Shown: one piece after another, positions 3,001-19,709 of the stretch
Layout: every line of letters starts with the position of its first letter
Numbering within the stretch: the first letter of the stretch is position 1
Virus record (IMG/VR): IMGVR_UViG_3300031974_001836
Origin: an uncultured virus (IMG/VR IMGVR_UViG_3300031974_001836)
Taxonomy: Duplodnaviria > Heunggongvirae > Uroviricota > Caudoviricetes
Reading direction: 5' to 3' (one strand)
DNA length: 20,000 nt
Position numbers and translations under genes: made by a program
The notes under the pieces: generated by a model
The model's input: the letters and a program-made list of their open reading frames with translations, nothing else
Told to the model about the DNA's origin: nothing
Database searches by the model: none

Positions 3001-5437
3001 GACCGTCTGCGTTAACCTGCTCTGCGGCAGATGCACGGACGATTTCTGCATCGATCTGATCTTGTAGGTCTTGTACGTCTGATCCGACTAGACCTTGTAG
3101 AGCAAGGATGTCTGAATCGTTCGAAGTAACCTGAGACTGTAGAGAGTCTGCTGTTGACTGTAGACCTGCCTCAACACCTGAAGCACGTACAACTTCTGCT
3201 AGGATTGCCGCATTTAGATCGGAATCTGCTTCGTTGAAGTCTGCTTCTACTGTATCTAAACGGTTGCTTAGACCCTGTTCAGCTGCCTGTGCACGTGCAA
3301 CTTCTGTGTTGATCGCACCTAGGTTAGAAGAGATGTTTGAGATGTTTGTGTTGATGTCTGTGCGAAGTACTGATTCAGCAGCTTCTGCACGTTGACGTTC
3401 TGTAACAACTGCTTGTGCGTTAGTTTGCTCTGCAGTTGATGCACGAGTAACCTCTGCTGTGATCTGTGCTTGTAGATCGTCAACATCGATTGTAGTGTTA
3501 CTGCTAAGTGCGTTGACCTGTGCTTGTAGGTCTGAGTCACCAGATGCACGTGCAACTTCTTCTGCACGTAGATCGACTTCGTTTTGAGCAGCTAGTGCTT
3601 CAACGTCATCCATCTCACCTTCTAGTACTGTTGTACGTAGAGATAGTGCTTCCTCTGCAGCTTCTGCACGTGCCTTTTCGACATCGTGTAGAGTCTGTGC
3701 AAAGTTAGTTGCTTGTGTCTTAGCAGTTGCGATACGTGCTGTAATTGTGTTACCAGCAGTTCCGTCAACTGAAGCATCACCGATAAGAGCAGTGTCTTGT
3801 GCGTCTGCGTGTGCAATCGCAACTGCTTGGTGTGCGTCTGCTTCTTGGTCAGTGTATGCTTTTGCTTGTGCAAGTACGTCGTCTGTAGAGACGTTTAGAT
3901 CAAGTTCTAGTGCGTCGATCTGAGACTGTAGACCTGCGTCTGCAGTTGAACGAGTTGATGCCTCTGCGTCGATGTTGCCCTGTAGGACAGAATCAGCAGA
4001 TGCACGAGTTGATGCTTCGTTCGAGATTGCAGTAGTGTTAGAAGAAATCAATGCAGACATGTCTGAATCAGCAGACTGGAATGCATCAACGATTTCTGTT
4101 AGTGAGTCTAGTGCTGCAGGATCAGTGTTGTTAGTGATGAAGTCAACTTGTGATTGTAGACCTGCTTCAACACCTTCAGCACGTGCTTTTTCTGTAGCAA
4201 CTTCTGCTGAGTTAGCAACGTCACCAGCAAGACGATCAGCAATTTCTTGATCGATACGAGCACCTAGATCTGAGTCACCTGCGATACGAGCAGCGTTCTC
4301 GATAGCAACATTGCTGTTTGCTTCGACGATTGCTTCTGCTTTTGCAGTTGCGATACGATCTGTGATAGTGTTGCTTGTAGTACCATCAACAGTTGCATCA
4401 CCGATCATTAGAGCATCTTGTGCTTCAGCATGTGCCTTAGCATCTGCTTCTGCTTGAACGATGTCTGCACCTAGATCAGTACGAACCTGTGTATCAGCAA
4501 CAGCACGAGCAACGATCTCATCTGAGATGTTTGATGCGTTCGCAGCTTCTGCCGCAGTTGCACGAGAAACTTCGTCTGCAAGATCTTGTGCGATCGCAGA
4601 TTCTGCGTTAGATGCACGAGTAACTTCTGCGTCGATTTGAGACTGTAGAGAACCAGACTTAGTCTCTTCTGTAGTCAAACGAGCAGATAGAGCATTGTCT
4701 GCCGCAATACGGGCAGTCTCTTCTGCACCGATTAGACCAGCAAGTGAAGACTCTGCAGATTGTGCACGTGAGATCTCTGTAGTAACACGATCATCAATTG
4801 CTTGTTCTGATTGAGTCGCACGAGTGACTTCGTTTGTGATAGCAGTGCTGTTTGCGATGATTGATGCAGATAGGACATCGTCCGCTGATTCAAATGCCGC
4901 AATGATTTCTGCAAACGAGTCTAGTGCTTCTGGACTTGTGTTGTTTAGGATGTTATCGATACGAGTCGATAGTGTAGAATCAGCTGCTTGGTAAGCAGTT
5001 TCGATTGCGTTCTCACGAGCAATTGCACGGGTTTCTTCTGCCGTGATGTTTGCTTGTAGAGTAACGTCTGCCGATGAACGAGTAGATGCTTCTGCGTCGA
5101 TGTTTGATTGTAGTAGAGTCTCTGCCGCAACTGCACGGTTTGTTTCTACTAGAACATCTGCGTCAATCTGCGCAGCGACATCTGTATTAGCACGATCAGC
5201 GGTATAGTATAGGTTAGAACCTTCCGCTAGGTCAGACGTGCTGAACGAAGCGAAGAACTGGTCTGCACCAATCTTCTTTAGTGAGTCAGAACCCACATCG
5301 TAAAGAAGAGTAAAGCAGTCCGCAGGATTTACCATACCTTGAAGGGTTGATTGTCCCTGTACCGCACTTTCGTCAAGTTTGGTATTGATTACCGCCTTGT
5401 CCGCTAGTGCAGGGGATTTAATCTGCCTAAATGCCAT
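2..5437 (-). CDS. Very long segmented coiled-coil virion fibre (fibritin/tail-fibre-like), >=1812 aa, 3' end outside the window
   Basis: Not in the ORF track because there is no stop in the window. ATG at 5437 follows an AGGAGA RBS and begins MAFRQIKSPALADKAVINTKLD. The same frame is still open at the left edge (...GDGAQTTFALDFYTQDANAIVFVGGVIQ). I translated both ends and several internal segments, not every codon. Contains Ala/Glu/Arg heptads (E..RA..AE..L...I), four LDS[LF].EI..A[FL] motifs, four A[VI]NE[LIV]H motifs and a YadA-like neck (KVEGVANGTVATDAVNKGQLD, about 415-490). Confidence 0.88.
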   Translation of the reverse strand, partial: MAFRQIKSPALADKAVINTKLDESAVQGQSTLQGMVNPADCFTLLYDVGSDSLKKIGADQFFASFSTSDLAEGSNLYYTADRANTDVAAQIDADVLVETNRAVAAETLLQSNIDAEASTRSSADVTLQANITAEETRAIARENAIETAYQAADSTLSTRIDNILNNTSPEALDSFAEIIAAFESADDVLSASIIANSTAITNEVTRATQSEQAIDDRVTTEISRAQSAESSLAGLIGAEETARIAADNALSARLTTEETKSGSLQSQIDAEVTRASNAESAIAQDLADEVSRATAAEAANASNISDEIVARAVADTQVRTDLGADIVQAEADAKAHAEAQDALMIGDATVDGTTSNTITDRIATAKAEAIVEANSNVAIENAARIAGDSDLGARIDQEIADRLAGDVANSAEVATEKARAEGVEAGLQSQVDFITNNTDPAALDSLTEIVDAFQSADSDMSALISSNTTAISNEASTRASADSVLQGNIDAEASTRSTADAGLQSQIDALELDLNVSTDDVLAQAKAYTDQEADAHQAVAIAHADAQDTALIGDASVDGTAGNTITARIATAKTQATNFAQTLHDVEKARAEAAEEALSLRTTVLEGEMDDVEALAAQNEVDLRAEEVARASGDSDLQAQVNALSSNTTIDVDDLQAQITAEVTRASTAEQTNAQAVVTERQRAEAAESVLRTDINTNISNISSNLGAINTEVARAQAAEQGLSNRLDTVEADFNEADSDLNAAILAEVVRASGVEAGLQSTADSLQSQVTSNDSDILALQGLVGSDVQDLQDQIDAEIVRASAAEQVNADGLAAEITRATGIESGLRTDVDSNQAQITANDSDILALQVLQATDHADNQAQITAEVNRATAAEGVLQGNIDAEQTRAEGIEAGLRTDVDSVQAQVTANDSDILALQNLQSGDVTDLQNQLDAEIVRATGVETGIRTDLTTLEGRVDFIVSNEDGAALDSLTEIVSAFQNADSDLQGVIDANGGRLTTLESEMDAVELRATDLEAKDVAHTNRLNGLDSDQIVQNTRLSGVEGRATALETKQGSALLHTTATNVSDAINEIHGELDVEAANVDLLQSEMDVAEGRLDGHDSDVSVLQGRASAVEGRATVLEGRATSLETKQGSATLLTTATNLSDAVNELHEELGAEAGDLTALTARVTTAEGEIDTLQSEMDAVEGRATSLESRMTTEEGHVDTLQSQMGVVTLATVANNVTGAVNELHTQADDNTSRIGVLETEMNAIEGRGDSLESRMDAVESKNTLQDGRLTINEGDILALETKLGTGNFDTTAQTITGAVNEVHGELDAVEGRMTAAEARADADSDRLSTEIQARIDGDLAIRADLGADRITDQADYIARDAVVASNAASDATTKANNAEAAAKVYADGIVAGEATLRENADDALDGRIDQEINDRQVADNGLDTRLTVVETEMSATQLASGLATDGTYVTPAGTNYLDASTSLADAAAKLDAAIKSVDNTRNSGVTNLQSQLDAEIARATAAEGANRTLINGEVARATGAESDLGDLITTNAQAIASESSRAQGVEASLQSQIDFVVSNTDSAALDSLTEIVAALQSGDGDLLSLIQTNQTDIATNASGLAQEITDRAAQGTAIRGEFAAADTALQTQIDGRVQKSGDSMSGNLDMSGNKVEGVANGTVATDAVNKGQLDAGLAAQHISQFSTDDLVEGSKKFFSDALARASVSLVDTAGEGKVSYNSSTGVFSIDTAKSLLELADVSDSAYDGKNGYVLRVNNTLDGMSLQDPTQLAFNNAKRQTMAGDGAQTTFALDFYTQDANAIVFVGGVIQ

Positions 5438-5490
5438 TAGGTTATCTCCTAGTTGGTTAGTGTTTTTTGGATTAAACGTTTAATAATATA

Positions 5491-5850
5491 CTAACGAAAT
5501 TTAATGTAGATGTCCGTACCTTGCGGTGGGATCTCAAAAAATTGTATAGTATCTCCAGCGGTTTCATATACTTCTTCAGGATGTTGAAGTACATCATTGA
5601 CCCATACATCAATTAAGTCATCACGTGCTGGAGTACCATTCAATGTGAAGATTGCTGTGTCTCCGGGAGCAATGAATGCCTGTGCTTCTGGAATCACAGT
5701 TCTGTCATTTGTTGATGATGAAGTACCTTCGATAAGTTCGAATAGTTGAGATTCTTGACCAGGGGTTGCTGAAACTTCGTCTTGCTTTTGTTTTGCTAGA
5801 TTGAAAAGACTTTCGGCAAGTACCCTGTTAAAGGACTTATTATTGATCAT
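5491..5850 (-). CDS. Small virion structural protein with a beta-sandwich module (GD...F.L...V.VN.VLQ.P...Y...I.F...P..G)
   Basis: 119-aa ORF directly downstream of a late promoter. Its C-terminal module resembles the one at the end of the 2..5437 ORF and the one in the 292-aa ORF. Confidence 0.75.
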   Translation of the reverse strand: MINNKSFNRVLAESLFNLAKQKQDEVSATPGQESQLFELIEGTSSSTNDRTVIPEAQAFIAPGDTAIFTLNGTPARDDLIDVWVNDVLQHPEEVYETAGDTIQFFEIPPQGTDIYIKFR

Positions 5851-5886
5851 ATCGTGGAATACTAAGGATGGTTAATATACTGTTTT

Positions 5887-5894
5887 TATTTATA
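5887..5894 (-). promoter_or_regulatory. T4-type late promoter TATAAATA
   Basis: Exact consensus on the minus strand, intergenic, about 37 nt upstream of the ATG at 5850. Confidence 0.85.
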
Positions 5895-5923
5895 CTAAAA
5901 ACGAGTTTAACCGATTGATTTTT

Positions 5924-6806: not shown

Positions 6807-7163
6807 TTACCTCGTGACCGAAGGGTTGACTTTTATCTTACCTTCTAGTATTCTTTCTATAATGGTATGACCTTCTTCATCAACGAAACTGATCTCAACA
6901 TCATAGACGTATCTACCACGAGTGGATAGAGCATCGGTCTGTAGGTTAGTTAGGGATAATGTGACGACACCTTCCAGTGCTGGAGTAGGTATTACAGCAG
7001 TAAAGTCGATCGACTCTGTACTCCTGTATGTCTTTTTCATTTTGGCAGCTGCTGTATAACCAGTTAGATCTTTTTTAGATCCATCGGGATTCACTAACTC
7101 TAATTGTAGAGCTAGGTCCGCACCCTGATCAATTGTGAAATCTTCGTAAGTTGCCATAGTCAT
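6807..7163 (-). CDS. Conserved T4-like virion structural protein (BppU-N-like beta-sandwich)
   Basis: Pattern IDQGAD...DLTGYTA.A.M.K...G.VTLSLT..QT..L..GRYVYDVEI...RILEG...V.P.VTR. The start is probably the ATG at 7163 or 7157, not the TTG at 7166. Confidence 0.75.
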   Translation of the reverse strand: MTMATYEDFTIDQGADLALQLELVNPDGSKKDLTGYTAAAKMKKTYRSTESIDFTAVIPTPALEGVVTLSLTNLQTDALSTRGRYVYDVEISFVDEEGHTIIERILEGKIKVNPSVTR

Positions 7164-7194
7164 CAAGACCCTAAGTGTATAAACGTTCTGTGAC

Positions 7195-7228: not shown

Positions 7229-7936
7229 TTATTCTGAAGAGATGTCTTCTAAGACCATCTCACGGAAGTCTGCAGATGCTTCCGACCAGTCGAACACATA
7301 AGAAACTGTAACTCTCCACTCATCTTCTGAAGATGCAGCGTGATACAGTACATTCTCTGGTTCGTTGTATGGTCCAAAGTATGCAGCCTTACAAGTCCAT
7401 TGCCCTGGTTTGTCCTGACAACGAATCACCTCTTTAGTTTCTGGGTGAATATAGTCGAACCAACCTGTGCCGTTCTCTGTGTAAGAGAAGACTAGGTTGT
7501 AGCCTGGTGCATTGGCATTGTTGTGCCATGAGATAAATCCACCCGGTGGGTAGATTGCCGCAAGTGCGTTGTGCTTAACTGACAAGAAGTTCATCATCTT
7601 GGCATTAAGATCACGCAACATGTGCGTGAAGTCACGTTTGAATACTGGATCGGCATCTTTCTCAAAGATCATGTGAGACTTTTCTGATAGTTTAAAGTTG
7701 TAACCTACCATCTCATCTGGGAAACCTTCGTGCTTAGTGCCCTGATTGACAATCTCCTGCATGTACTTCTCACCAACGTAGTATGGACGTTGACGTTTGT
7801 GTTGCGCAGAATTTAGGTGCACGTTCTCTTTGAATCCCGCAATGGTATGCAACTTTGCGTACTGGTTTAGAATCTCAAGCAGCTCTGGATTTTTGACATC
7901 CACGTGCTTCAGATATTTGTCGTTTACCTGTGTCAT
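7229..7936 (-). CDS. Putative 2OG-Fe(II) oxygenase-like (double-stranded beta-helix) protein
   Basis: 235 aa with YPPGGFISWHNN...LYHAASSEDEWRVTVSY, matching the Y..G....H.x...H.......R layout. It has HxN where HxD is canonical. Confidence 0.6.
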   Translation of the reverse strand: MTQVNDKYLKHVDVKNPELLEILNQYAKLHTIAGFKENVHLNSAQHKRQRPYYVGEKYMQEIVNQGTKHEGFPDEMVGYNFKLSEKSHMIFEKDADPVFKRDFTHMLRDLNAKMMNFLSVKHNALAAIYPPGGFISWHNNANAPGYNLVFSYTENGTGWFDYIHPETKEVIRCQDKPGQWTCKAAYFGPYNEPENVLYHAASSEDEWRVTVSYVFDWSEASADFREMVLEDISSE

Positions 7937-8670
7937 ACGATTGGTTTATCCTTGTTAAGACCAGCAGAGAAGTGTCGTAAGATCACTGGCCCTGTGTCTG
8001 GTTTTGTTATTGCCCAATTAAGTGCGTTATAGTAGTTCCACCTTAGATCGTCATCAAAGATTCCAACCTTAAGGTCTTTGTACTTTTCCTCTTTCTCTAC
8101 TAACCACCAGAGTGAGAACTGGTCCCAAGACTTGAGACTATCAGCATATCCCTCTGGCCACCATGTATCATTCATCTGTCTGTATGTCAAATCCCACCAG
8201 TCTTGCATGAACTCACGCACGATTGGTTTGGTCATATCATATAGACAGACACCACCACATAGTGTGAACTTAGAAACACCCTCTGGGGTGTCGAAGTCAC
8301 GTTCTGCGTAGATGTAATCACGATCATCTGTTAACGCAGAAAAAACCATGTCATGGTCTTTCATTTCATCCCAAACTTTAACGATGTCTTCGTGTTCGCA
8401 TTCCATGTCTGCGTCGATGTACATCGTTAGATCATATGGAGATTTTGCCATGCCCCATAATTTGGCACGGTAGTGGTCGTCACAAAAGATAATATCATCT
8501 GCTACATCTCTGCCACGGTCATCTAAGAACTGCTCTTCGGTGACTAGGCAAATCTTACATTCATCTTCCGGTTCGTAAAAGTCTCGGATCGACTCTGCTA
8601 GATTGATTGCATACAGATAAAAATTGCGTTTCTTCGACGCAACGATAACAAAACCTTTACTCTTTTCCAT
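7933..8670 (-). CDS. Putative GT-A fold glycosyltransferase (nucleotide-diphospho-sugar transferase / GT8-like)
   Basis: 245 aa with K...M..SPYD.TMYIDAD (DxD motif), CGGVCLY, WDQ, WN and a C-terminal ILRHF. Overlaps both neighbouring genes. Confidence 0.75.
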   Translation of the reverse strand: MEKSKGFVIVASKKRNFYLYAINLAESIRDFYEPEDECKICLVTEEQFLDDRGRDVADDIIFCDDHYRAKLWGMAKSPYDLTMYIDADMECEHEDIVKVWDEMKDHDMVFSALTDDRDYIYAERDFDTPEGVSKFTLCGGVCLYDMTKPIVREFMQDWWDLTYRQMNDTWWPEGYADSLKSWDQFSLWWLVEKEEKYKDLKVGIFDDDLRWNYYNALNWAITKPDTGPVILRHFSAGLNKDKPIV

Positions 8671-9196: not shown

Positions 9197-9225
9197 ATTA
9201 TACCATAAGGATTGCTATTATGCAA
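9197..9225 (-). promoter_or_regulatory. Sigma70-like promoter TTGCAT-17 nt-TATAAT with extended -10 (TGG-TATAAT)
   Basis: -35 at 9225-9220, overlapping the last codons of the fibre gene. -10 at 9202-9197. Spacer is 17 nt. Confidence 0.6.
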
Positions 9226-12200
9226 CCCTCACATATAGTGTATAGGTATCAGTAACGTGTGTTAGTGTATCACTGATCGTTGCACCTACGTAGTTACCTA
9301 GGAACGATCTTGAGTAGTTACCCACGAAGTCACGAGCATAGTTGCCCTCAAATCCACGTGTGTAGTTACCAGTGAAATCACCTACGTATGTAGAAACACG
9401 GTCACGTGAGTATGCACCACTGTATGCAGACGTACGGATACGAGCATAAGCAGATACACGGACACGTGCATAGTTACCTACGAAGTCACGAGAGTAAGTA
9501 CCAGTGTACTCACCGACGAATCCACGTGCGTAGTTACCCACGAAGTCACCGACAAAGTCACGAGCATATGCACCCGTGTACTCACCAGTAAATGTACGTG
9601 CGTAGTTACCTACGAAGTCACCAGCAAATTCACGTGTGTACTGACCAGAGAACGTACGTGCATAGTTACCAGTAAAGGTGCGGTTATATGCACCAGTGTA
9701 TTCACCAACGAATCCACGTGAGTAGTTGCCTACGTAATCACCAGCAAACTGACGTGAGTAAGTGCCTGAGTATGCCCCAGTGTATTCACCAACGAATGTG
9801 CGGTTGTAAGCACCAGTGTACTGACCAGAGAATCCACGTGAGTAGTTACCGACGTAGTTTCCACCGAAGTCACGAGTGTAGTTACCTACGTAATCACCAG
9901 CAAAGTTACCGACGAAATCACCGATGAAGTTACCTGCGAAGTTACGTGAGTAGTTACCTGTGAAGTCACGAGCATAGTTACCAGCAAAGTCACCTGCAAA
10001 GTTAGTTACACGATCACGTGTGTATGCAGAAGAACGGTTGCGGACATATGCCGATACACGAGTACGTGCGTAAGCAGAGTAACGTGTGCGTGTTGATGTG
10101 CGAGTGTACTCACCAGTAAAGTTACCAGCAAAGTCACCAGCAAAACCACGTGCATAGTTACCTACGAAGTCACCAGCAAAACCACGAGAGTAGTTACCGA
10201 TGAAGTTACCAGCAAAGTTAGTTACTCGATCTCTAGTGAAGTCACCAACGTAGTTGGTTACACGAGTACGAGCATATGCTGAACTACGGCTTCTGGTTGA
10301 AGTACGTGTGCTGTTACGTGTGTATTCACCAATGAAGTTACCTGCGAAGTTTGTTACACGGTTACGTGTGAAGTCACCAACATAGTTAGTGATACGAGTA
10401 CGTGCATAAGCAGAGTAACGTACACGAGTTGAAGTACGGACACTGTTACGAGTGTAGTTGCCTACAAAGTTACCAGCAAAGTTTGTAACACGGTTACGAG
10501 TAAAGTCACCAACGTAGTTAGTGATGCGAGTACGTGCGTATGCTGAATAACGAGTACGGGTTGAAGTGCGAGTAGATGTACGTGCGTAGTTTCCTACGTA
10601 ATCACCTGTGTAGTAACCAGTACGTACGTAGTTTCCTACGAAGTCACCTGCATAGTAACCAGTACGTGTGTAGTAACCAGTGTTGGTTGACGTACGGGTT
10701 GACGTACGAGCATAGTTGCCTTCATAAGAAGCACCACGAGTACGTGCATAGTTACCTTCATAAGAAGCACCACGAGTACGTGAGTAGTCACCGACATATG
10801 ATGCGGCACGAGTACGTGTGTATGCTACTGTACCTACGTAATCACCAGCAAAGTTACCAACGTAGTTTCCGGTGTAGGATGCACCACGACTACGAGTGTA
10901 TGCTACGTTACGGGTATAGTTGGTTGCACGAGTACGTTGATAGTTTACGGTACCTACGTAATCACCAGCAAAGTTACCTACGTAATCACCAGTATAAGTT
11001 GCGGCACGGTTACGAGTATAGTTTTGTGACCACTCACCAATGAAGTCACCTGTGAAGTCACCTGCGTAGTTTGCAGTACCGACGAAGTTACCAGTATAAC
11101 TTGAAGTTCCTGTCCATGATAGACCATATCTCCATTCCGCACCATATGATACACGGAATGTACCTCTTGAATACCATACACCGTTCTTCTGTACAGAAGT
11201 TGTACCTGAAGTACCAGAAGCAAATCCAACATATACTCCGTCAGCATAGAGCATGATACCTTGCATCTCGTAGTCATATACCCACTGGGTGACGTTTGCA
11301 ACGTATACGTCAGTGTTGGTCTGAGTGCCAGTAGAGGTACGTGTTGACGTAACTGAACGAGAATAGTTGACAATTGAGTTACGAGTCGAGTTAGTAGCAC
11401 CACCACGTGAGTAGTCACCTGTATAGGATGCCGCACGACTACGAGTGTAGTTAGTTGCACGAGTACGAGTAAAGTTGGTCTGACGTGTGTAATCACCTAA
11501 GAAGTTACCAGTGTATCCTACTGTACGAGAGTAGTTACCAGTATAGGTGGCTGCACGTGTACGAGTATAATCTGTTGCACGAGTACGAGTAAAGTTGGTC
11601 TGACGTGTGTAGTTACCGACATACGATGCCGCACGAGTACGTGCATAGTTACCGACATACGATGCCGCACGGTTACGTGCATAGTTACCAACATACGATG
11701 CGGCACGAGTACGTGCATAGTTACCTACGAAGTCACCTGCGTAGTATAAAGTACGAGTATATGCTAGTACACGAGTCGATGTACGTGTTGACGTACGAGT
11801 GTAATCTAGTACACGAGTCGACGTACGTACAGAGGTACGTGCGTAGTTGCCTACAAAGTCACCTGCGTAGTTGCCAGCAAACCCACGTGCGTAGTTACCA
11901 ACAAAATCTCCGGTAAACGTAGTAGCATAGTTGCCTACGAAATCACCAGCAAAGTTAGTTACACGATCACGGGTATAGTTACCAGTAAAGTCACCTGTAT
12001 AGTTTCCTGTGAATCCACGTGCGTAGTTACCTACGAAGTCACCAGTAAAGGTTGTCGCATAGTTACCTACGAAGTCTCCCGCAAAGTTAGTGACACGATC
12101 ACGAGCATAGTTACCAATGAAGTCACCAGCAAAGTTGCCAGCAAACGCACGTGCATAGTTACCAACAAAATCTCCAACGAAATCACGGGCATAGTTGCCA

Positions 12201-13933
12201 ATGAAGTTGCCAGCATAGTTGGTTACACGATCACGAGTATATGCTGAGTAACGAGTACGTGTTGACGTACGAGCATAAGCACTGTAACGAGTACGAGTAG
12301 ATGTACGTGTTGATACACGAGCATAGTTACCGACATAGTTGCCAGCAAACCCACGTGAGTAGTTGCCTACAAAGTTACGTGCATAGTTACCTTGGAAACT
12401 GCGTGAGTAGTTACCAACGAAGTTACCAGCAAAGTTTGTAACACGGTTACGAGTATATGATGATACACGAACACGTGAGTAGATGCCAGCAAAGTTAGTG
12501 ACACGATCACGAGTGTAGTTAGTTACACGAGTGCGGACGTAGTTATCAGAATAAGCAGAAACACGAGTACGAGTGTAAGTGCCTGCGTATGCTGAAACAC
12601 GGTTACGTGAATAAGTACCTGCGTATGCAGAGACACGGTTACGTGAGTAAGTTCCTGCATAGGTACCAGTATAAGACGACACACGAGTACGAGTGTAGTT
12701 AGCAGAGTATGCAGAACTACGTGTACGTGAGTATGTGCCTGAGTAAGATGATACACGACCACGAGTGTACGAAGATGCACGGCTGCGTGAGAATGTACCA
12801 GTAAAGTTTGTTACACGGTTACGAGTGTATGTTGATACACGTGCTCGTGTATAAGTTCCAGCAAAGTATCCAGTGAATGCTGTTAGACGTGTACGTGAGT
12901 AAGTCGACGTACGAGTCCTTGAGTAAACACCTGAGTATGCAGAACCACGAGTACGAGAATAGTTACCCTCGAAACCACGTGTGTAGTTTCCTGTGAAGTC
13001 ACGTGAGTATGTGCCCGTGTAATCACCTACGAAAGTACGTGAGAAAGTATTGACACTATTACGTGTATATGAGGAAACACGATTTCTTGAGTAAGCAGAA
13101 ACACGAGTTGTTACATACGATGATGGGCGTGTGCGAGTATAACTCTGATCCACGATCGTACGACGTGTGTTTGTTGCTGAACCCTTTGCCATCCAAGTAC
13201 CTGCAGATGTAGGTACACCTTGTGTATCAGAACGTAATTGATACGAACCGATAGCACCAGCAGTGGCACGTAGAGTTTTTGCACGTTGACCAAGTGTGTA
13301 CTTGATCTGTGCGTCTGTCATTTCTTTAAATCCGTCGACAGAAGAACCATCATAGACAGTTGCAACTGGACGAACAACATCATAAGTAGTTGCACTTAAT
13401 GATGTCTTTTTCCAAATATGGTAGTTTACAGTAGTGCCGTCTCCATGAGTATCTGTAAATACATTCTCAATATGGATACTCCAATCTAAGCCTGGAGATG
13501 TTTGAGATAGACGGAAGGATCCTTGATATTCTAATCCCGCAACGTCTTTCATGACACGTTCTGTAAGTAGGTCTAAGTCCCCGTCGTTCATTTCATAGAA
13601 ACCAGGGTTAGGCCCCACGTCATAGTATCCTACTGGACGGGCAAAATCTGCACCGGACTCATCTGCTGATCCACCCACTTGCTTAAGAGCAGTAGTTGTT
13701 GTGGTACCAGTGATCTGAGATGCAGGGTGTGTCCCTGCTGGTTCGTTGTAGTACGTATCTACGAAGGAACCAATATTCACACTTCCGGTTAAACTGATAT
13801 TACCGATATCACTAGCAGTGGCCTCTGCTAATGCTTCTCCAACCTTAATGGCAAGATATGCTTCTTCTGCCGGTTGGAATTCCTGTAGGTCACCATCATT
13901 AATGATTTTTAGTGGTATACTAGATGCTGACAC
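9218..13933 (-). CDS. Giant Arg/Tyr/Gly/Thr tetrapeptide-repeat fibre protein with mirror-symmetric arms (1571 aa)
   Basis: GTG start with a GAGAG RBS and a late promoter upstream. Architecture is 264-aa base + 606-aa arm + 75-aa tip + 606-aa arm + 20-aa tail, which sums to 1571. Confidence 0.9.
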   Translation of the reverse strand: MSASSIPLKIINDGDLQEFQPAEEAYLAIKVGEALAEATASDIGNISLTGSVNIGSFVDTYYNEPAGTHPASQITGTTTTTALKQVGGSADESGADFARPVGYYDVGPNPGFYEMNDGDLDLLTERVMKDVAGLEYQGSFRLSQTSPGLDWSIHIENVFTDTHGDGTTVNYHIWKKTSLSATTYDVVRPVATVYDGSSVDGFKEMTDAQIKYTLGQRAKTLRATAGAIGSYQLRSDTQGVPTSAGTWMAKGSATNTRRTIVDQSYTRTRPSSYVTTRVSAYSRNRVSSYTRNSVNTFSRTFVGDYTGTYSRDFTGNYTRGFEGNYSRTRGSAYSGVYSRTRTSTYSRTRLTAFTGYFAGTYTRARVSTYTRNRVTNFTGTFSRSRASSYTRGRVSSYSGTYSRTRSSAYSANYTRTRVSSYTGTYAGTYSRNRVSAYAGTYSRNRVSAYAGTYTRTRVSAYSDNYVRTRVTNYTRDRVTNFAGIYSRVRVSSYTRNRVTNFAGNFVGNYSRSFQGNYARNFVGNYSRGFAGNYVGNYARVSTRTSTRTRYSAYARTSTRTRYSAYTRDRVTNYAGNFIGNYARDFVGDFVGNYARAFAGNFAGDFIGNYARDRVTNFAGDFVGNYATTFTGDFVGNYARGFTGNYTGDFTGNYTRDRVTNFAGDFVGNYATTFTGDFVGNYARGFAGNYAGDFVGNYARTSVRTSTRVLDYTRTSTRTSTRVLAYTRTLYYAGDFVGNYARTRAASYVGNYARNRAASYVGNYARTRAASYVGNYTRQTNFTRTRATDYTRTRAATYTGNYSRTVGYTGNFLGDYTRQTNFTRTRATNYTRSRAASYTGDYSRGGATNSTRNSIVNYSRSVTSTRTSTGTQTNTDVYVANVTQWVYDYEMQGIMLYADGVYVGFASGTSGTTSVQKNGVWYSRGTFRVSYGAEWRYGLSWTGTSSYTGNFVGTANYAGDFTGDFIGEWSQNYTRNRAATYTGDYVGNFAGDYVGTVNYQRTRATNYTRNVAYTRSRGASYTGNYVGNFAGDYVGTVAYTRTRAASYVGDYSRTRGASYEGNYARTRGASYEGNYARTSTRTSTNTGYYTRTGYYAGDFVGNYVRTGYYTGDYVGNYARTSTRTSTRTRYSAYARTRITNYVGDFTRNRVTNFAGNFVGNYTRNSVRTSTRVRYSAYARTRITNYVGDFTRNRVTNFAGNFIGEYTRNSTRTSTRSRSSAYARTRVTNYVGDFTRDRVTNFAGNFIGNYSRGFAGDFVGNYARGFAGDFAGNFTGEYTRTSTRTRYSAYARTRVSAYVRNRSSAYTRDRVTNFAGDFAGNYARDFTGNYSRNFAGNFIGDFVGNFAGDYVGNYTRDFGGNYVGNYSRGFSGQYTGAYNRTFVGEYTGAYSGTYSRQFAGDYVGNYSRGFVGEYTGAYNRTFTGNYARTFSGQYTREFAGDFVGNYARTFTGEYTGAYARDFVGDFVGNYARGFVGEYTGTYSRDFVGNYARVRVSAYARIRTSAYSGAYSRDRVSTYVGDFTGNYTRGFEGNYARDFVGNYSRSFLGNYVGATISDTLTHVTDTYTLYVRVA
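9281..11098 (-). repeat. Returning tetrapeptide-repeat arm (aa 946-1551)
   Basis: 148 tetrads plus 7 dipeptide skips, in mirror order to the outgoing arm. Confidence 0.9.
11324..13141 (-). repeat. Outgoing tetrapeptide-repeat arm (aa 265-870)
   Basis: 148 tetrads of types YxRx, F/YxGx, RxS/T/Ax and SxRx, plus 7 dipeptide skips. Confidence 0.9.
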
Positions 13934-14010: not shown

Positions 14011-14490
14011 TTAACTTTTTTGAGGCCAGACCACTTCCTGTACAGAAGTAACACCATCTAGGTGGTCGGTGATATCTCTTAACTGCTGCCGGTAGTTTCT
14101 CCATGACTGCAACTCTTGCTCAGATAGAGGAGCATCAAGTGCTTGAGTCCAGTCACAAGCAGTGAGTAATTGGTCTCGAATCATACGAACATCTCTAACC
14201 AAATCTTCGTGGTTCCATGTCCAATCTAAAGACTCGAAGTTCCACGTTGCATGCTTGTTTGGTGGTAACCCTGTGAATTTAAAGGTTTTTGTTGATGCAT
14301 CAAACCAGTGATAATCCATGAAGTAGGACAAGTCACTGCATCCTGCAGGAAGACTATCCTCATGAACATAGATAATACGTTGAGAACCATCGGGAGTAAA
14401 CCCCTCTGAATCAATCTTCACTTGCGGAAGAGAGATCCTTTCTAGTCTTCCTGTCTGCGTATTAGCATATACAACATAGCATAATTTCAT
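14011..14490 (-). CDS. Phage tail (fibre) assembly chaperone
   Basis: C-terminal R..RD.LL..CDWTQ..D.PL......W..YRQ.LRDIT......V.WP signature. Lies directly after a fibre gene. Confidence 0.85.
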   Translation of the reverse strand: MKLCYVVYANTQTGRLERISLPQVKIDSEGFTPDGSQRIIYVHEDSLPAGCSDLSYFMDYHWFDASTKTFKFTGLPPNKHATWNFESLDWTWNHEDLVRDVRMIRDQLLTACDWTQALDAPLSEQELQSWRNYRQQLRDITDHLDGVTSVQEVVWPQKS

Positions 14491-14491
14491 T

Positions 14492-17400
14492 TTAACTTCT
14501 CGTTACTTGATAATAGGTCATAATAGGTCCACCAGAGTAGTCTGTCTCGATGTAATTTCCACGAGTATATGTGAATCCACCAGTTGTTATTGTAGTATCA
14601 TTTTCACTCTGACCTGATAGTGGTTCAGAAAAATACACTTCAGTCCCATTCCATCGAATCTGTATCGTCACAAGATCTTCACCTTCTGGACTAGGAACAA
14701 GTGATACTCTCCACCAAGTGCCAGAGTTAGACGTATCTGTCGTCTGAGGTGGTGGTTCTGAGTTGACATCTGACGAAGTAGGTGCTACCGAAACCGGAGT
14801 AGTTACCAAATAACTACCTGCTGTGATCCATTGACTACCATTGAACACTTTTATATCATAGGTATATGATGTCCCATTAGGTGGGATCTCATTTACCGTG
14901 AAGTTATTTAGACCACTTGTTACTGTAACATCTGTTAAAATGAGAGCATTATCACGATAAACTCTCAACGACACAGGAGTAGACCCCTCTGTCAAATGTG
15001 TTACTGACAGTTGATGTGTTGTGTCATTTTCCGGATGCACTATTCGATTAGAGGTTGTGGCAAAAATACCCGAATCATTATCATATAACGTGAACTCTTT
15101 CTCCGCAAGAACCTCAACGTTGCTACTACCCATTGGTTCGTTGATACTGGAAGTGTCATTCCCAGTACGTAACTGTGCCCTGAAGGTTTCTCCTTGCCAT
15201 CCCATTTCTCCAACACCGGCTGATACTGTACTGGTTCGTGTATAGTTGCCTATGAACTCACCCGTATAATACGTCTTGGCACCATCGGAGTATGAAGAGG
15301 TTCTAGTTCTTATAAAGTCTCTAGTTGAGGTTCTAGTAGAATTCCTTGTCGATGGTACATAATTCGCATAGTTCCCCAAGTAACTTGGTGTCCTCACATA
15401 ACTGCGTGAATCTGTAAAGTCACGTGTATAGTTACCTGTAAAGTTACCAGTGTACTCTCCAATAAAGGACAACACCCTACTGAAAGCAGTGACTCTTATA
15501 TCGGTTCGAGAACTAACACGTGTGTAGTAAGAGATCGGATATCTACTATATGAGTCTACAATGTTGCGACTATAATTACCTTCGTAGTTACCTTCATACG
15601 ATGGAGATCTGCTATACGTTCCTGTATAGTCACCTATGAAATCTCCAACAAATGATCTCTGATAGTTGCCCTCAAAATTACCACCGAAGTCTCGATTATA
15701 GTTTCCGGTGAATGTACCAGCATAGGAGAACACGGACTCTCGTACACGAGTTGACGTACGACTAGACGTTCGTTGATAGTTAACCGCATGATTCTCTACA
15801 CTACCTTCTATGATGACTTGTCGAGTAGACGCACCTACATAATCTCCCGTATAGATGCGAGTATAAATTCCAGTTCTCTCATAGTTACCCGTATACTGAC
15901 CAGCAAAGTTTCTGTTATAAGTTCCTGTGTATTCCGATACAAATCCTCTTTCATAATTGCCTAAGAAACCTGGTGTGTATGTGCTAACTCGGTTTTTAAG
16001 ATATGTGCTGTATCTGGTAACAACCCTTCCACTTGTCTTGGTTGATATTCGAGAGTTCTCTCCCACGAAATTACGTGTATAATATCCAAATATCTCGACC
16101 ATACCACCCGCATCGGGATCGAATATAAATCGACTAGAAACTTTTGTGACGTTGCCGACAAAGGATCGAGTGTAATTTCCAAAATAACTTCTACTATAGT
16201 CCCCATTATAAGCACGACCATAATTACCAATATAGGTAAGAGTACCTGTATATGAAGAGACTCTATTTCTAGTAGAACTACCTCCCACCGATCTAATCCG
16301 TTGATAGTTACCTATAAAGTCTCGGGTATAATTGCCTACAAAGTTTTGACTAGCAGTTGGTGTGCTTGTACTGGTGTTTTCTGCTATTTTATAATCTTCA
16401 ACAAATGTAGTGGCAGTTTGAAGTGTCCCTCTATGATAATATTTACCTCCTACAGGACCGACAATGGATGATACTCTTGCATCAGCCATACTATCGTATG
16501 CACTACTGGTGTAAACGAGTGTTCCATTGTAGTATAATTGAATAAAGTATTCGTACGTAATATCTCCTCTACCGTCACCAAATCCACCTTCTACGAATCG
16601 AGCAAGTCTCCATACGTATTGAGGATTACCATTAGTGATAGAATATAAGAACGGATCAGACCCACTACCACTGACTCTGGTTCGTTCGTAGGTAGAGGTT
16701 CTAGTTCTCTCGTAGTTGCCTTCGTACGAAGCATTTCCCGTAAAATTACCCACAAACGTACGAGAGTAAGTTGAGGTTCTTGAGTAGTTCCCCTCAAAGT
16801 TGCGAGAGTAATTACCGACAAACGTACGAGAGTATCCCCCTTCATATGACTCGACACGTGTACGTGTATAGTCTACCAGATTTGCGTACGAAGACGTTCT
16901 GGTTCGAGCAAACTCACCAGTATAAGTAATCGTTCTGGTGTAGTTACCTACGAAACCACGTTGATAGTTACCAACAAACGTTCGGGTGCTCTCTGTCCCA
17001 CCCCTAGTTCGAGTGTATGCGGAGATTCGAGTTCGAGCATAAGTTCCGTCGTATGTGGACAGTCTTGCTCTCGTTGAGATTCTTTGATACGGCACTTGTC
17101 GGGTAGATGTTATCGAGTATCGATAACGGCCATAATTTACCTGTGGAACGTAATCCCCTATGAAGTTGCCCAGAAAATTTCCAGTGTAGGTTAGAGTTCG
17201 AGTAAAGTCGAATGGTCTTTGTCTTTGATAAGACGATACTCGTGTTCGACTTGATACTCGATTATACGCAGAAAGTCTCGTGCGTGTAGACGTACGAGTA
17301 AATGTCTTCGACGTTGACAACTCTGGTATTCGAGTTCTAGTGTAATTACCAGCGTAGTTAGACGGACGGTTTCGTTGATACGTCTCGGTATATGTACCTG

Positions 17401-18895
17401 GTCTATAGGTTATCTCAAGTCTACCTTCTGGGTCATTCGGTATAGGATTCCAGTTGTAGTAGATGGTGCCCGTATAAAATCTTGAGTAGTTACCCTCGAA
17501 TGATAACCCGTCTGAGTAATTACGTTCGAATGTACTCGTACGTGTACTATTCCTTGTCGACAGTCGAGTGTATAGACCTTCATAGTCAACTGTTCTTACA
17601 TAGTCACCCGTGTACCCTATTGTCCTTGTGCTTGTTCTAGTATAAGTGCTAAGACGGGTATAGTCTCCGGTAAAGTCTCCGGTATAGTACCCTATTGTAT
17701 TACCAATAAAGTCACGGTTGAATCCTGTTGCAATATCAACGATTGACTGTCTGGTAAACGACCCTGTTCTTTCAATGGTTACATTATATGATGTAGTGTC
17801 ATTATAAGAGACAAACGTTGCTGTATGCGCAGACCCCGTAAATGTAGAAAAGTTTGCAGTAAAGTCTTTCTGTGCTACACCGTCTGACCCTGAGAGTCTG
17901 AATAATTTAACGTGATAATTGTTAGGTTCGTTAGTCGTTGCTATTAGACTAATCGATTGTCCTTCAATTATATTATCGACACTAGAGAATTGCAATGCTC
18001 CCTGTAGACTAGATTCCTCTTCGTTTTGTTGACTAGTTCCTGAAGAAGACCCTTCTAGTTTGGCCGCAAACAATGCGTTCAGGTTCCTGAAGTTTTGATA
18101 TATTTCTTGTAGACCTGACTCATCATAGTTAATTAAGATAGAGTCGTAATACCGAACCTGTGTAGTGCTGAACCCCAGTCCGTACAGATTAGTTGTAATT
18201 TGGTTGTCTTGAAAAGCACCACTAATAGCACCGGATAAAGACCATTCAATATTAATATAGCATCCAGCACTATGATTTAAAAACGGGTTGCCTAAGACGG
18301 TCCAGTTCTGACTTGGTGGTAGATAGGTTTCAATATTAAAAATATTATTGGTGATAAGTGCTCTGGAATCAAAAGCAATTCTACCCTGTGATGTCTTTAT
18401 CTGTAGACCATATTCATCGTCGTTTAACGCAGATGAATTTTCTATAATCTCTGCTGTCTCACGGACAATAAAGTAGTCCATGTCCACATCCCAATCAGCA
18501 GTCACATAGGTCTGGTTTAAATATCCACCATTGGTAAGTCCACGACCTTTGAATCTGTAGGTATTGCTTAGTGCATCACTTGCCGTTCGTGCTAGGAAAA
18601 ACACTTCAGGGTTTGAGATAGTAACGTCTTGCGTAGTCCCATTAAAATTGGTAATTGCGTCGGGTACAACTATTGGACCAAATCCGGTTCCAGTTAAATC
18701 TGGATTGTATCCGGTTGCGGTTGGACGTTTTACAAAGACAAAGTCTTCTTTGGTGAGTTCGGAATCTAAGGTAAACGAATGCCCACGACCTGCTGCTACA
18801 ACTCTGTAGTTAAGAAGATCGAGAGTAGTATCGGCAATAATGAAATTGTTACCGTTGCCGTCATTGCCTTGTACCTTTAGACCGTAGGTCATCAT
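14492..18895 (-). CDS. Second tetrapeptide-repeat fibre protein (1467 aa)
   Basis: N-terminal YGL.[VI]...G...[FA]D[ST] motif occurs twice. A Calx-beta-like domain is split by an approximately 860-aa repeat insertion that has a central domain. An Ig/FN3-like domain, a P/S/T linker and a C-terminal domain follow. ATGA overlap with the upstream stop. Confidence 0.88.
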   Translation of the reverse strand: MMTYGLKVQGNDGNGNNFIIADTTLDLLNYRVVAAGRGHSFTLDSELTKEDFVFVKRPTATGYNPDLTGTGFGPIVVPDAITNFNGTTQDVTISNPEVFFLARTASDALSNTYRFKGRGLTNGGYLNQTYVTADWDVDMDYFIVRETAEIIENSSALNDDEYGLQIKTSQGRIAFDSRALITNNIFNIETYLPPSQNWTVLGNPFLNHSAGCYINIEWSLSGAISGAFQDNQITTNLYGLGFSTTQVRYYDSILINYDESGLQEIYQNFRNLNALFAAKLEGSSSGTSQQNEEESSLQGALQFSSVDNIIEGQSISLIATTNEPNNYHVKLFRLSGSDGVAQKDFTANFSTFTGSAHTATFVSYNDTTSYNVTIERTGSFTRQSIVDIATGFNRDFIGNTIGYYTGDFTGDYTRLSTYTRTSTRTIGYTGDYVRTVDYEGLYTRLSTRNSTRTSTFERNYSDGLSFEGNYSRFYTGTIYYNWNPIPNDPEGRLEITYRPGTYTETYQRNRPSNYAGNYTRTRIPELSTSKTFTRTSTRTRLSAYNRVSSRTRVSSYQRQRPFDFTRTLTYTGNFLGNFIGDYVPQVNYGRYRYSITSTRQVPYQRISTRARLSTYDGTYARTRISAYTRTRGGTESTRTFVGNYQRGFVGNYTRTITYTGEFARTRTSSYANLVDYTRTRVESYEGGYSRTFVGNYSRNFEGNYSRTSTYSRTFVGNFTGNASYEGNYERTRTSTYERTRVSGSGSDPFLYSITNGNPQYVWRLARFVEGGFGDGRGDITYEYFIQLYYNGTLVYTSSAYDSMADARVSSIVGPVGGKYYHRGTLQTATTFVEDYKIAENTSTSTPTASQNFVGNYTRDFIGNYQRIRSVGGSSTRNRVSSYTGTLTYIGNYGRAYNGDYSRSYFGNYTRSFVGNVTKVSSRFIFDPDAGGMVEIFGYYTRNFVGENSRISTKTSGRVVTRYSTYLKNRVSTYTPGFLGNYERGFVSEYTGTYNRNFAGQYTGNYERTGIYTRIYTGDYVGASTRQVIIEGSVENHAVNYQRTSSRTSTRVRESVFSYAGTFTGNYNRDFGGNFEGNYQRSFVGDFIGDYTGTYSRSPSYEGNYEGNYSRNIVDSYSRYPISYYTRVSSRTDIRVTAFSRVLSFIGEYTGNFTGNYTRDFTDSRSYVRTPSYLGNYANYVPSTRNSTRTSTRDFIRTRTSSYSDGAKTYYTGEFIGNYTRTSTVSAGVGEMGWQGETFRAQLRTGNDTSSINEPMGSSNVEVLAEKEFTLYDNDSGIFATTSNRIVHPENDTTHQLSVTHLTEGSTPVSLRVYRDNALILTDVTVTSGLNNFTVNEIPPNGTSYTYDIKVFNGSQWITAGSYLVTTPVSVAPTSSDVNSEPPPQTTDTSNSGTWWRVSLVPSPEGEDLVTIQIRWNGTEVYFSEPLSGQSENDTTITTGGFTYTRGNYIETDYSGGPIMTYYQVTRS

Positions 18896-19304: not shown

Positions 19305-19709
19305 CTATGGTTTAGGTGGCCAAACAACTGACTCCAAATCAGAATAGTCTTGTGTGATATCACGAAGTGTTTGTCTGTACACGCTCCATTCTTCTCGTTG
19401 ACCGTCACTCAGACCATTGTCATCTAACCTAGTCCAGTCACATTCCTGAAGTTTAGTATTACGTGCCTGACGCAATTCTTCTATTTCGATCTGTGCGATA
19501 ACATCATCTGGATAAGGTGCTACAATTTGTGCTACAATATCATCAGATTCAATGTATTTGTTCAGAACAATTGCTCGTGTAGCATCATACTCTTCTTGCC
19601 ACGGAATAAAAAGTTTCCATGCTTCTGGTGATGGTACCACATTATTGGGAAAGGATTGAGGAGAACCCACTGGAATACCGTTATGTACTTTTATAAACTG
19701 TATGCTCAT
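19305..19709 (-). CDS. Phage tail (fibre) assembly chaperone, paralogue of 14011..14490
   Basis: Contains LRQARNTKLQECDWTRLDD..LS..QREEWSVYRQTLRDITQ.......VVWPPKP. AGGA RBS. Confidence 0.85.
   Translation of the reverse strand: MSIQFIKVHNGIPVGSPQSFPNNVVPSPEAWKLFIPWQEEYDATRAIVLNKYIESDDIVAQIVAPYPDDVIAQIEIEELRQARNTKLQECDWTRLDDNGLSDGQREEWSVYRQTLRDITQDYSDLESVVWPPKP

Follow-up and report, generated by a model that had tools for sequence, protein, structure and literature searches.

A 20,000-nucleotide stretch of DNA from an uncultured virus (IMG/VR record IMGVR_UViG_3300031974_001836), called the window below, has all its sizeable open reading frames (ORFs) on the minus strand, and one of them encodes a protein of 1571 amino acids that consists largely of four-residue repeats. 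The repeats form two long arms on either side of a short central domain (Table 1). When one arm is read forwards and the other backwards, the two are complementary residue by residue; this mirror complementarity has a unique register, is conserved among relatives and is accompanied by compensating insertions and deletions (indels). Very probably the gene product is a fold-back beta-hairpin fibre protein of the virion, with a presumed receptor-binding tip encoded in the middle of the gene. The source is an uncultured marine T4-like phage, placed in Kyanoviridae by its nearest named relative, phage C48C1.

Table 1. Features of the fibre gene and its neighbourhood, in positions of the window
Feature	Position	Strand	Description	Basis
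Predicted fold-back fibre protein gene	9218..13933	-	1571 amino acids + stop, GTG start	ORF list, translation
N-terminal globular domain	13142..13933	-	residues 1-264, non-repetitive, family-conserved	relatives, L015 model
N arm	11321..13141	-	residues 265-871, tetrads [Y/F/R/S]-x-[R/G/S/T/A]-x, outer end rich in R-x-S/T-x	
Tip (knob) domain	11105..11320	-	residues 872-943, ~72 residues, aromatic-rich, hypervariable	register centre 1815/2
C arm	9281..11104	-	residues 944-1551, complement of the N arm read backwards, outer end rich in F-x-G-x	
C-terminal tail	9218..9280	-	residues 1552-1571, ends ..TYTLYVRVA, + stop	conserved in most relatives
Tail-fibre assembly chaperone	14011..14490	-	between the two hairpin genes	PF16778 E 5.7e-16; phrog_4912 'tail fiber assembly'
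Second tetrad-repeat hairpin protein	14492..18895	-	1467 amino acids, own central knob, extra C-terminal domains	mirror alignment
Second tail-fibre assembly chaperone	19305..19709	-		PF16778 E 2.3e-16; phrog_4912
ORF running off the window	2-5437	-	>1812 amino acids	weak stalk-like matches (YadA-stalk, XhlA)
LtfC-like protein gene	6807-7166	-		Pfam/PHROG search
Two ORFs in the fibre module	7229-8670	-	235 and 245 amino acids; conserved in C48C1 as hypothetical proteins	no Pfam/PHROG match

The complementarity was first pointed out in an earlier note made from the letters alone, at positions 9281-13141, which correspond to residues 265-1551 of the minus-strand ORF 13933..9218. The protein has no family match in Pfam or PHROG, and a phmmer search against all PDB chain sequences gave 0 matches at an expectation value (E) of 1 or below. 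Its N-terminal domain is the probable attachment (proximal) end, and the C-terminal tail, whose motif is present in most of the 152 proteins listed, probably docks onto that domain. Both arms are built of four-residue units (tetrads) with Y, F, R or S at position 1, R, G, S, T or A at position 3 and small residues only at positions 2 and 4 (V/T/A/S and N/T/D/A, respectively). The 1213 arm residues are drawn from 16 residue types, with 0 His, Lys, Cys and Met, and include 164 Arg vs 61 Asp+Glu, which amounts to a net charge of about +103. The tip domain has weak similarity to its counterpart in the adjacent hairpin protein (E 0.019). Three overlapping ORFs of 103-172 amino acids (10576-11043 and 11605-11916 on the plus strand, 10978-11496 on the minus strand), rich in His, Tyr and Leu, are very likely read-throughs of the repeats and not genes.

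If the N arm is written forwards over the C arm written backwards, a single register, defined as i+j=1815, spans the arms from their outer ends to the centre, through several phase changes in both. The symmetry centre lies between residues 907 and 908, between the G and T of A-S-G-T-S-G, inside the tip domain. When all registers from 1700 to 1930 were compared at the residue level, register 1815 gave 261/641 complementary pairs, as against 199 for the next best, and it was top or tied in 12 of 16 forty-residue windows; the mutual information (MI) was 1.08-1.14 bits at 1813/1815 and about 0.65-0.78 bits elsewhere. Tetrads were counted in a block of 111 that keeps a constant phase. There, R-x-S/T-x stands opposite F-x-G-x in 40/40 cases (24 in the N arm and 16 in the C arm), whereas other tetrad shifts between -24 and +24 gave only 4-24 matches of 28-40 (best other shift 24/39). 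Tetrad MI was 1.09 bits at shift 0 and 0.16-0.46 bits at other shifts, apart from 0.92 bits at the adjacent shift +1, and 5000 shuffles, whether free or preserving the period-8 phase, yielded 12 matches on average and 23 at most, with MI no higher than 0.38. The single sharp peak that the earlier note expected, relative to offset registers and shuffled arms, was thus obtained. Its description of the arms as complements and not copies also agrees with the alignment scores, 724 for the mirror and 82 for the parallel orientation.

The pairing rule behind these numbers is simple. That every R-x-[S/T]-x tetrad opposes F-x-G-x proved exceptionless under every definition tried, but the total of 43 originally given for such tetrads depends on the definition: the count is 40 by class in the block, 42/42 with the motif RxRxS/Tx[YF] over the whole arms and 36/36 in a stricter context. 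R-x-A-x faces Y-x-G-x in 10/10 cases, as first noticed, although these sit in tandem 12-residue units and so are not ten independent events, and S-initial tetrads face F/Y-x-G-x in 13/13 cases in the block. The remaining block pairs are mostly YxR/YxR (21), YxR/YxG (16) and FxG/FxG (6), in line with the earlier description of them as almost all aromatic-initial on both sides. Eight rung types recur in the block (F:G, F:R, F:S, F:T, G:R, G:S, G:Y and R:Y), among them 17 F:G and 24 Y:G rungs, and the types named at the outset (Y:R, R:G, F:S/T, A:Y and F/Y:G) were all recovered. On the coded face, that of positions 1 and 3, each rung consists either of a large residue (R/F/Y) over a small one (G/S/T/A) or of a Y:R pair. 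The suggestion of one hydroxyl per pair fits the family-wide preferences, in which S favours F over Y (73 vs 31) and A favours Y over F (53 vs 18). To judge from such covariation, these contacts would be physical cross-strand pairs.

'Punctuation' motifs of the type S-T-R-T-S-T-R-T-R-Y-S-A-Y (residues 541-568, 1270-1283 and similar) interrupt the tetrads; at mirror positions they oppose F/Y-x-G-x tetrads or one another, and the pairing there (S:G and R:F, or S:S and R:R) falls outside the simple rule. At the DNA level, the region contains 19 direct-repeat families and a sole inverted pair of 25 nucleotides (76%). With only this one weak pair, a DNA palindrome or antisense translation is ruled out as the cause of the pattern.

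How far does the order of tetrads act as an address? The earlier note proposed that it would fix one unique register, as in nucleic-acid hybridisation. The register is indeed globally unique, and for segments of 160 residues the true partner was the sole best scorer in 72/72 cases, with no equally good decoy. However, the proportion falls to 58/92 at 80 residues, 9/102 at 40 and 0/107 at 20, equally good decoys averaging 30 per 20-residue piece and 10 per 40-residue piece; there are only about eight rung types; and periodic stretches of P0002, the C48C1 relative, are matched equally well by the aligned register and by shifts of +4, +12 and -8. A strong form of the proposal, in which tetrad order alone selects the register and isolated arm fragments find only their mirror partners, is therefore unlikely. 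With short segments non-unique and rung types so few, the code is more likely a packing rule, or grammar, and the covalent turn and joined base are the more likely determinants of the register.

Among 50,697 GenBank phage records the sole true relative is P0002, a 3347-residue 'hypothetical protein' of phage C48C1 (Kyanoviridae; L001:10438-20481). The 63 tblastn matches to a 'structural protein' of Synechococcus phage S-RIM2 are not relatives; their low-complexity repeat is of another kind (T-G-N-V-T-G-N-L type). With the N-terminal domain as query, a word-indexed search identified 8 proteins that share it at 38-63% identity, and a scan of viral contigs found 27 loci at 48-100% identity, with 14 complete genes (12 distinct) for proteins of 850-2101 amino acids. 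An exhaustive HMMER search with residues 700-1115 returned 144 cluster representatives at E<=1e-3, 101-4564 amino acids long, most of them with the same C-terminal motif. In P0003, a metagenomic protein of 1798 residues (truncated), an insertion of about 700 residues, which has matches to PF14312 and PF13385, interrupts the N-terminal domain; the base domain too therefore tolerates large insertions.

For the arms of relatives, a log-odds scoring matrix was built from the pairs of the 1571-residue window protein, and as it was trained on that protein, the alignments optimised with it lean towards the rule. Mirror vs parallel local alignments scored 151 vs 44 for P0005, 134 vs 40 for P0007 and 148 vs 34 for P0008. 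In long gap-free blocks, RxRxS/Tx[YF] stood opposite FxG in 14/15 cases in P0005, 10/10 in P0008, 8/8 in P0007 and 67/68 in P0002, both exceptions being I-x-D. In P0005 and P0008 it is the outer N arm that is G-rich and the outer C arm that is R-rich; this polarity is opposite to that of the window protein, and the rule is still obeyed. Because optimised alignments reward the rule, the register was also fixed a priori from two conserved anchors, the aromatic residue 12 after the N-domain motif and, facing it, the G of the G-x-T-[IV] motif that precedes the C-terminal tail. This predicted register, which involved no optimisation, ranked first of 41 shifts in 19/34 members (17/32 when the window protein and C48C1 are excluded). 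Among 12 distinct complete viral-contig proteins of 850-1639 amino acids, it was the best of 801 registers in from 2/6 up to 13/15 of the forty-residue windows, including windows adjoining the tip; in the 2101-residue relative the inner windows were shifted by -230, as expected for a domain inserted in one arm. A global single-register scan was unsuitable for distant relatives because central domains and indels dominate its sum, and it was replaced by the local alignments and anchor tests. When the family was pooled without the window protein and C48C1 (32 members), R:Y, G:S, F:S, F:G, F:R and G:R were enriched, and F:F (1 vs 13.9 expected), F:Y (11 vs 46.9) and G:G (6 vs 26.7) were depleted. 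The covariation foreseen among homologues is thus found: the rule recurs and co-varies in relatives.

Compensating changes of length are the strongest evidence that the arms may pair. The window protein and its closest relative, L003, are 86% identical with ten gaps. Three N-arm indels are 4 residues or longer (+16 at 607, -12 at 808 and -10 at 845), and each has a partner of the same size in the C arm, at mirror positions 610, 805 and 846, that is, within 3 residues; a pair of 3-residue indels flanks the tip, and L003 keeps a register of its own, 1839, for 582/586 mapped pairs. Matched indels were 6/6 between L012 and L021 (-12, -16, -30, -4, +4 and -4/-6) and 3/3 between L020 and L021, and single matched pairs occur in L008/L021 (+28/+28), L020/L012 (+40/+40) and L011/L013 (+124/+124); a -60/-60 pair between the window protein and L019 is displaced by 25 residues. 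In 32 pairs of at least 70% identity, 70/195 N-arm indels had a mirrored partner as against 0-15 for offset mirrors, the 32 comparisons sharing sequences and so not being independent. A partner was counted if it had the same sign, differed in size by no more than 2 residues and lay no more than 12 residues from the mirror position; at lower identity, the position of gaps in repeats is ambiguous. The inserted pieces resemble local tandem duplications within each arm, and the paired indels would be two events kept together by selection.

One-sided insertions are seen in the 3347-residue protein of C48C1, aligned in the mirror sense with cheap long gaps. Its C arm alone carries six, five of them globular (269, 169, 158, 174 and 125 residues) and one of 46 residues that belongs to a duplicated segment. 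Once they are left out, the C-arm repeats pair consecutively with the unbroken N arm in blocks of 419, 280, 59, 82, 72 and 65, and away from the tip only 10 and 4 N-arm residues are left unpaired. The duplicated segment, of about 70 residues with flanking repeats (R-H-R-S-Y-L-Y-Y...S-G-Q-Y), is either real or an assembly artefact.

Substitutions are also distributed symmetrically. The window protein and L003 are 84-96% identical in both arms and 28-58% identical over residues 801-1000; 50-residue windows spanning 801-1050 give 48, 46, 28, 58 and 76%, a drop that is symmetric about the turn. Arm changes affect positions 1 and 3 of the tetrads in 3/214 and 1/214 cases and positions 2 and 4 in 38/214 and 27/214, and the same contrast recurs in six more distant relatives. 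Double substitutions between the two proteins show no peak at the register (29 vs 14-32 elsewhere), and changes cluster near the tip in both arms.

Could the mirror pattern be a historical by-product of repeat duplication, arising from inverted duplication or from self-complementary 12-residue units, without any present pairing? The flat count of double substitutions would agree with this, many units are tandem duplicates, as the 19 direct-repeat families attest, and some units are themselves mirror self-complementary, for example Y-A-R-T-R-A-A-S-Y-V-G-N. Yet beyond the weak pair mentioned above the DNA has no inverted repeat, the arms are complementary and not similar, size-matched mirror indels occur in independent lineages far more often than in offset controls, and P0005 and P0008 have exchanged R-rich and G-rich arms while keeping the rule. 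A by-product of this kind is extremely unlikely.

Structure prediction bears mainly on the base of the fibre. AlphaFold2 was run on the relative L015 (850 amino acids) with a 50-row alignment, and the N-terminal domain was modelled with a predicted local distance difference test (pLDDT) score of 81-98 in ten-residue blocks over residues 1-260 and of 78 over residues 261-270. Two long strands are present in the model, E249-276 and E818-848, and pLDDT is 65-97 for the last ~30 residues. Under the anchor-predicted register of L015, 1096, residue 847 stands opposite 249 and residue 820 opposite 276. The two modelled strands thus mirror each other, and in the model they may well be paired. A Foldseek search of the PDB with this model gave nothing at E<=0.001; the VIA wide fold search gave a best Z of 5.5 (MACPF-associated/MABP-like beta domains) and a Z of 2.6 to T4 gp11, below what counts as meaningful in that search. 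When the tip region was aligned by MAFFT with 24 whole relatives, the tip itself contained too many gaps to be of use.

These results suggest the following architecture. The chain would leave the conserved N-terminal domain, go outward as one beta-strand of about 607 residues, turn round at the variable knob of about 72 residues and come back as a second strand antiparallel to the first, residue i facing 1815-i; its last, conserved strand would join the N-terminal domain again. This would leave both termini phage-proximal and the distal, presumably receptor-binding tip encoded mid-gene. Along the coded face, every rung would place one large side chain over one small one, the large residue alternating between strands like a zipper with Y:R pairs in between; aromatic:aromatic and G:G rungs would be avoided and hydroxyls balanced, S/T going with F and A with Y. 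The second face, that of positions 2 and 4 with small residues only, would suit a narrow core. The pairing would thus take the form of a beta-ribbon, presumably within one chain, which if fully extended would measure about 0.2 micrometre (607 residues at ~3.3 Å each, by arithmetic). By analogy with T4 fibres the protein may be a trimer; a three-copy complex prediction for residues 775-1040 scored 0.00, was run without controls and is neutral on trimerisation.

Sequence complementarity is blind to whether pairing occurs within or between chains, and the N arm might instead lie antiparallel to the C arm of a neighbouring subunit in a domain-swapped or intertwined oligomer. Phage fibres are, as is generally known, usually intertwined trimers, and MI is high at three adjacent registers, 1811, 1813 and 1815 (0.98-1.14 bits), perhaps reflecting two neighbours; diagonal neighbours in one ribbon would give the same three-register signal. 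A Gly/Ser-rich stretch within a small domain marks the symmetry centre, the two ends of the chain come together in a single domain that was modelled with confidence in L015, and the arm lengths are matched at every point. All three features are required by a covalent turn, and a swapped arrangement explains them less directly, which makes pairing between chains very unlikely.

Several points weigh against the fold-back ribbon. The arms of the L015 model, residues 274-822, have a pLDDT of about 30 and thus lack structural support, and a tip fragment of the window protein (residues 745-1070) predicted without an alignment reached a mean pLDDT of 30.7. With so large an excess of Arg over acidic residues, a closed core formed from the coded face is hard to picture, and we know of no structural precedent for a two-stranded ribbon of this length. 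The anchor-predicted register is not the best in 15/34 family members, and arms made of Y-x-x-x repeats without R/G tetrads give no mirror signal with the present matrix (mirror vs parallel 28.8 vs 43.0 for P0004, 23.2 vs 21.1 for P0006 and 29.6 vs 21.2 for P0009). To these are added the absence of a double-substitution peak, the tandem origin of the R-x-A-x cases, the training of the matrix and the overlap among the indel comparisons, all described above. The fold-back fibre remains our preferred reading. For a broader proposal the chances seem to us about even, namely that it represents a fibrous protein class that is new: a two-stranded beta ribbon folded back on itself, single or in bundles, reaching 0.2-0.35 micrometre, its register held by a residue-level rule that co-evolves like an RNA stem through substitutions and paired indels, with a receptor-binding knob encoded mid-gene and globular insertions along one strand.

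The gene lies in a tail-fibre module beside fibre-assembly chaperones, as expected of a generic phage tail fibre, and the corresponding neighbourhood of the C48C1 relative is annotated with baseplate wedge, tail fiber and chaperone genes. The second hairpin protein, of 1467 residues, likewise has no Pfam or PHROG match and scores 96.8 in the mirror vs 34.8 in the parallel orientation, 20 tetrad shuffles giving 23.9+-4.5 with a maximum of 36.7. Indels between its arms are far more numerous, it extends about 200 residues further at the C-terminus, and it lacks the ..TYTLYVRVA end; the fold-back therefore appears in it as an excursion between two globular ends. The ORF at the other end of the window, 2-5437, is rich in Ala, Glu, Asp and Thr with recurring units of about 130 residues, and it probably encodes another long fibre of a different, coiled-coil-like kind. 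Just upstream of it, positions ~5403-5914 of the window are 87% identical to C48C1 DNA, in genes annotated as 'hypothetical protein' and 'tail fiber protein'.

Fibres are normally read with the N-terminus proximal and the C-terminus distal. In the present protein the fastest-evolving part, which would be the distal one, is encoded mid-gene and both ends would be proximal, and the search for receptor-binding regions in marine T4-like phages would change accordingly. By the homology search, about 144 cluster representatives at E<=1e-3 would carry the fold-back design. Residue-by-residue complementarity over some 600 positions, together with compensating indels, is a rare kind of evidence for a protein and makes a directly testable structural prediction. 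Should the ribbon prove real, long beta-ribbon materials could be designed by simple rules: the pairs R:G, F:S/T, Y:A, Y:R and S:G+R:F would be a natural design grammar for very long beta ribbons, and fibre length would be tunable through paired gain or loss of cassettes.

No description of such a protein was found in the literature covered, subscription journals and supplements being outside that coverage. Parts of the design can be compared with known systems. An aromatic side chain is reportedly able to rescue a glycine on a neighbouring strand, as Merkel and Regan are said to have found in 1998. In a preprint (bioRxiv 10.1101/2020.10.22.346965), this aromatic rescue, or 'mortise-tenon' arrangement of Tyr and Gly, is described for beta-sheets and beta-barrels, the aromatic residue lying over a Gly of the neighbouring strand. 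F:G and Y:G rungs are likewise common in the present arms. Aromatic rescue is an occasional local motif, whereas the rule found here (R:G, F:S/T, Y:A, Y:R, S:G+R:F) is wider and nearly exceptionless over several hundred consecutive rungs.

Rod-like phage and virus fibres provide a second comparison. In the triple beta-helix of T4 gp5/gp12 and the triple beta-spiral of adenovirus, three parallel chains run from a proximal N-terminus to a distal C-terminus, with contacts between repeat n and repeat n+1. The protein studied here resembles these fibres in its short repeats, in the long, thin, beta-rich rod that it would form and in its place in a tail-fibre module with chaperones. The gp5 triple beta-helix is described in PMC3004832. 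Unlike these rods, the present protein shows covariation between residue i and residue 1815-i, which points to an antiparallel fold-back.

The third comparison is with the needle of T4 gp37, the tip of the long tail fibre, which we take to be PDB entry 2XGF and which was reportedly described by Bartual et al. in 2010; its strands are a few tens of residues each. According to two sources (PMC9659904, PMC6957217), the needle consists of six antiparallel strands in which the chain runs to the tip and back, iron being bound by His along the axis and Gly touching Phe in the core, and in the former source (PMC9659904) the fold-back comprises only the last ~215 residues of gp37. Like this needle, the present protein belongs to the fibres of a T4-like phage, would run to a distal tip and back antiparallel with its receptor-binding part at the turn, would pack Gly against Phe and has a neighbouring gene for an assembly chaperone; the out-and-back course is indicated here by sequence covariation, that is, by register 1815, the mirrored indels and the symmetric divergence. 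It differs from gp37 in having arms of about 607 residues (about 1020 in the C48C1 relative), no counterpart of the His-x-His iron sites in arms free of His, and no detectable homology at the level of PDB chains or of Pfam and PHROG families. A fold-back fibre design is otherwise known only in miniature, in the gp37 needle. The T4 fold-back forms the C-terminal tip of an otherwise conventional fibre, whereas here it would make up nearly the whole protein, with both termini proximal.

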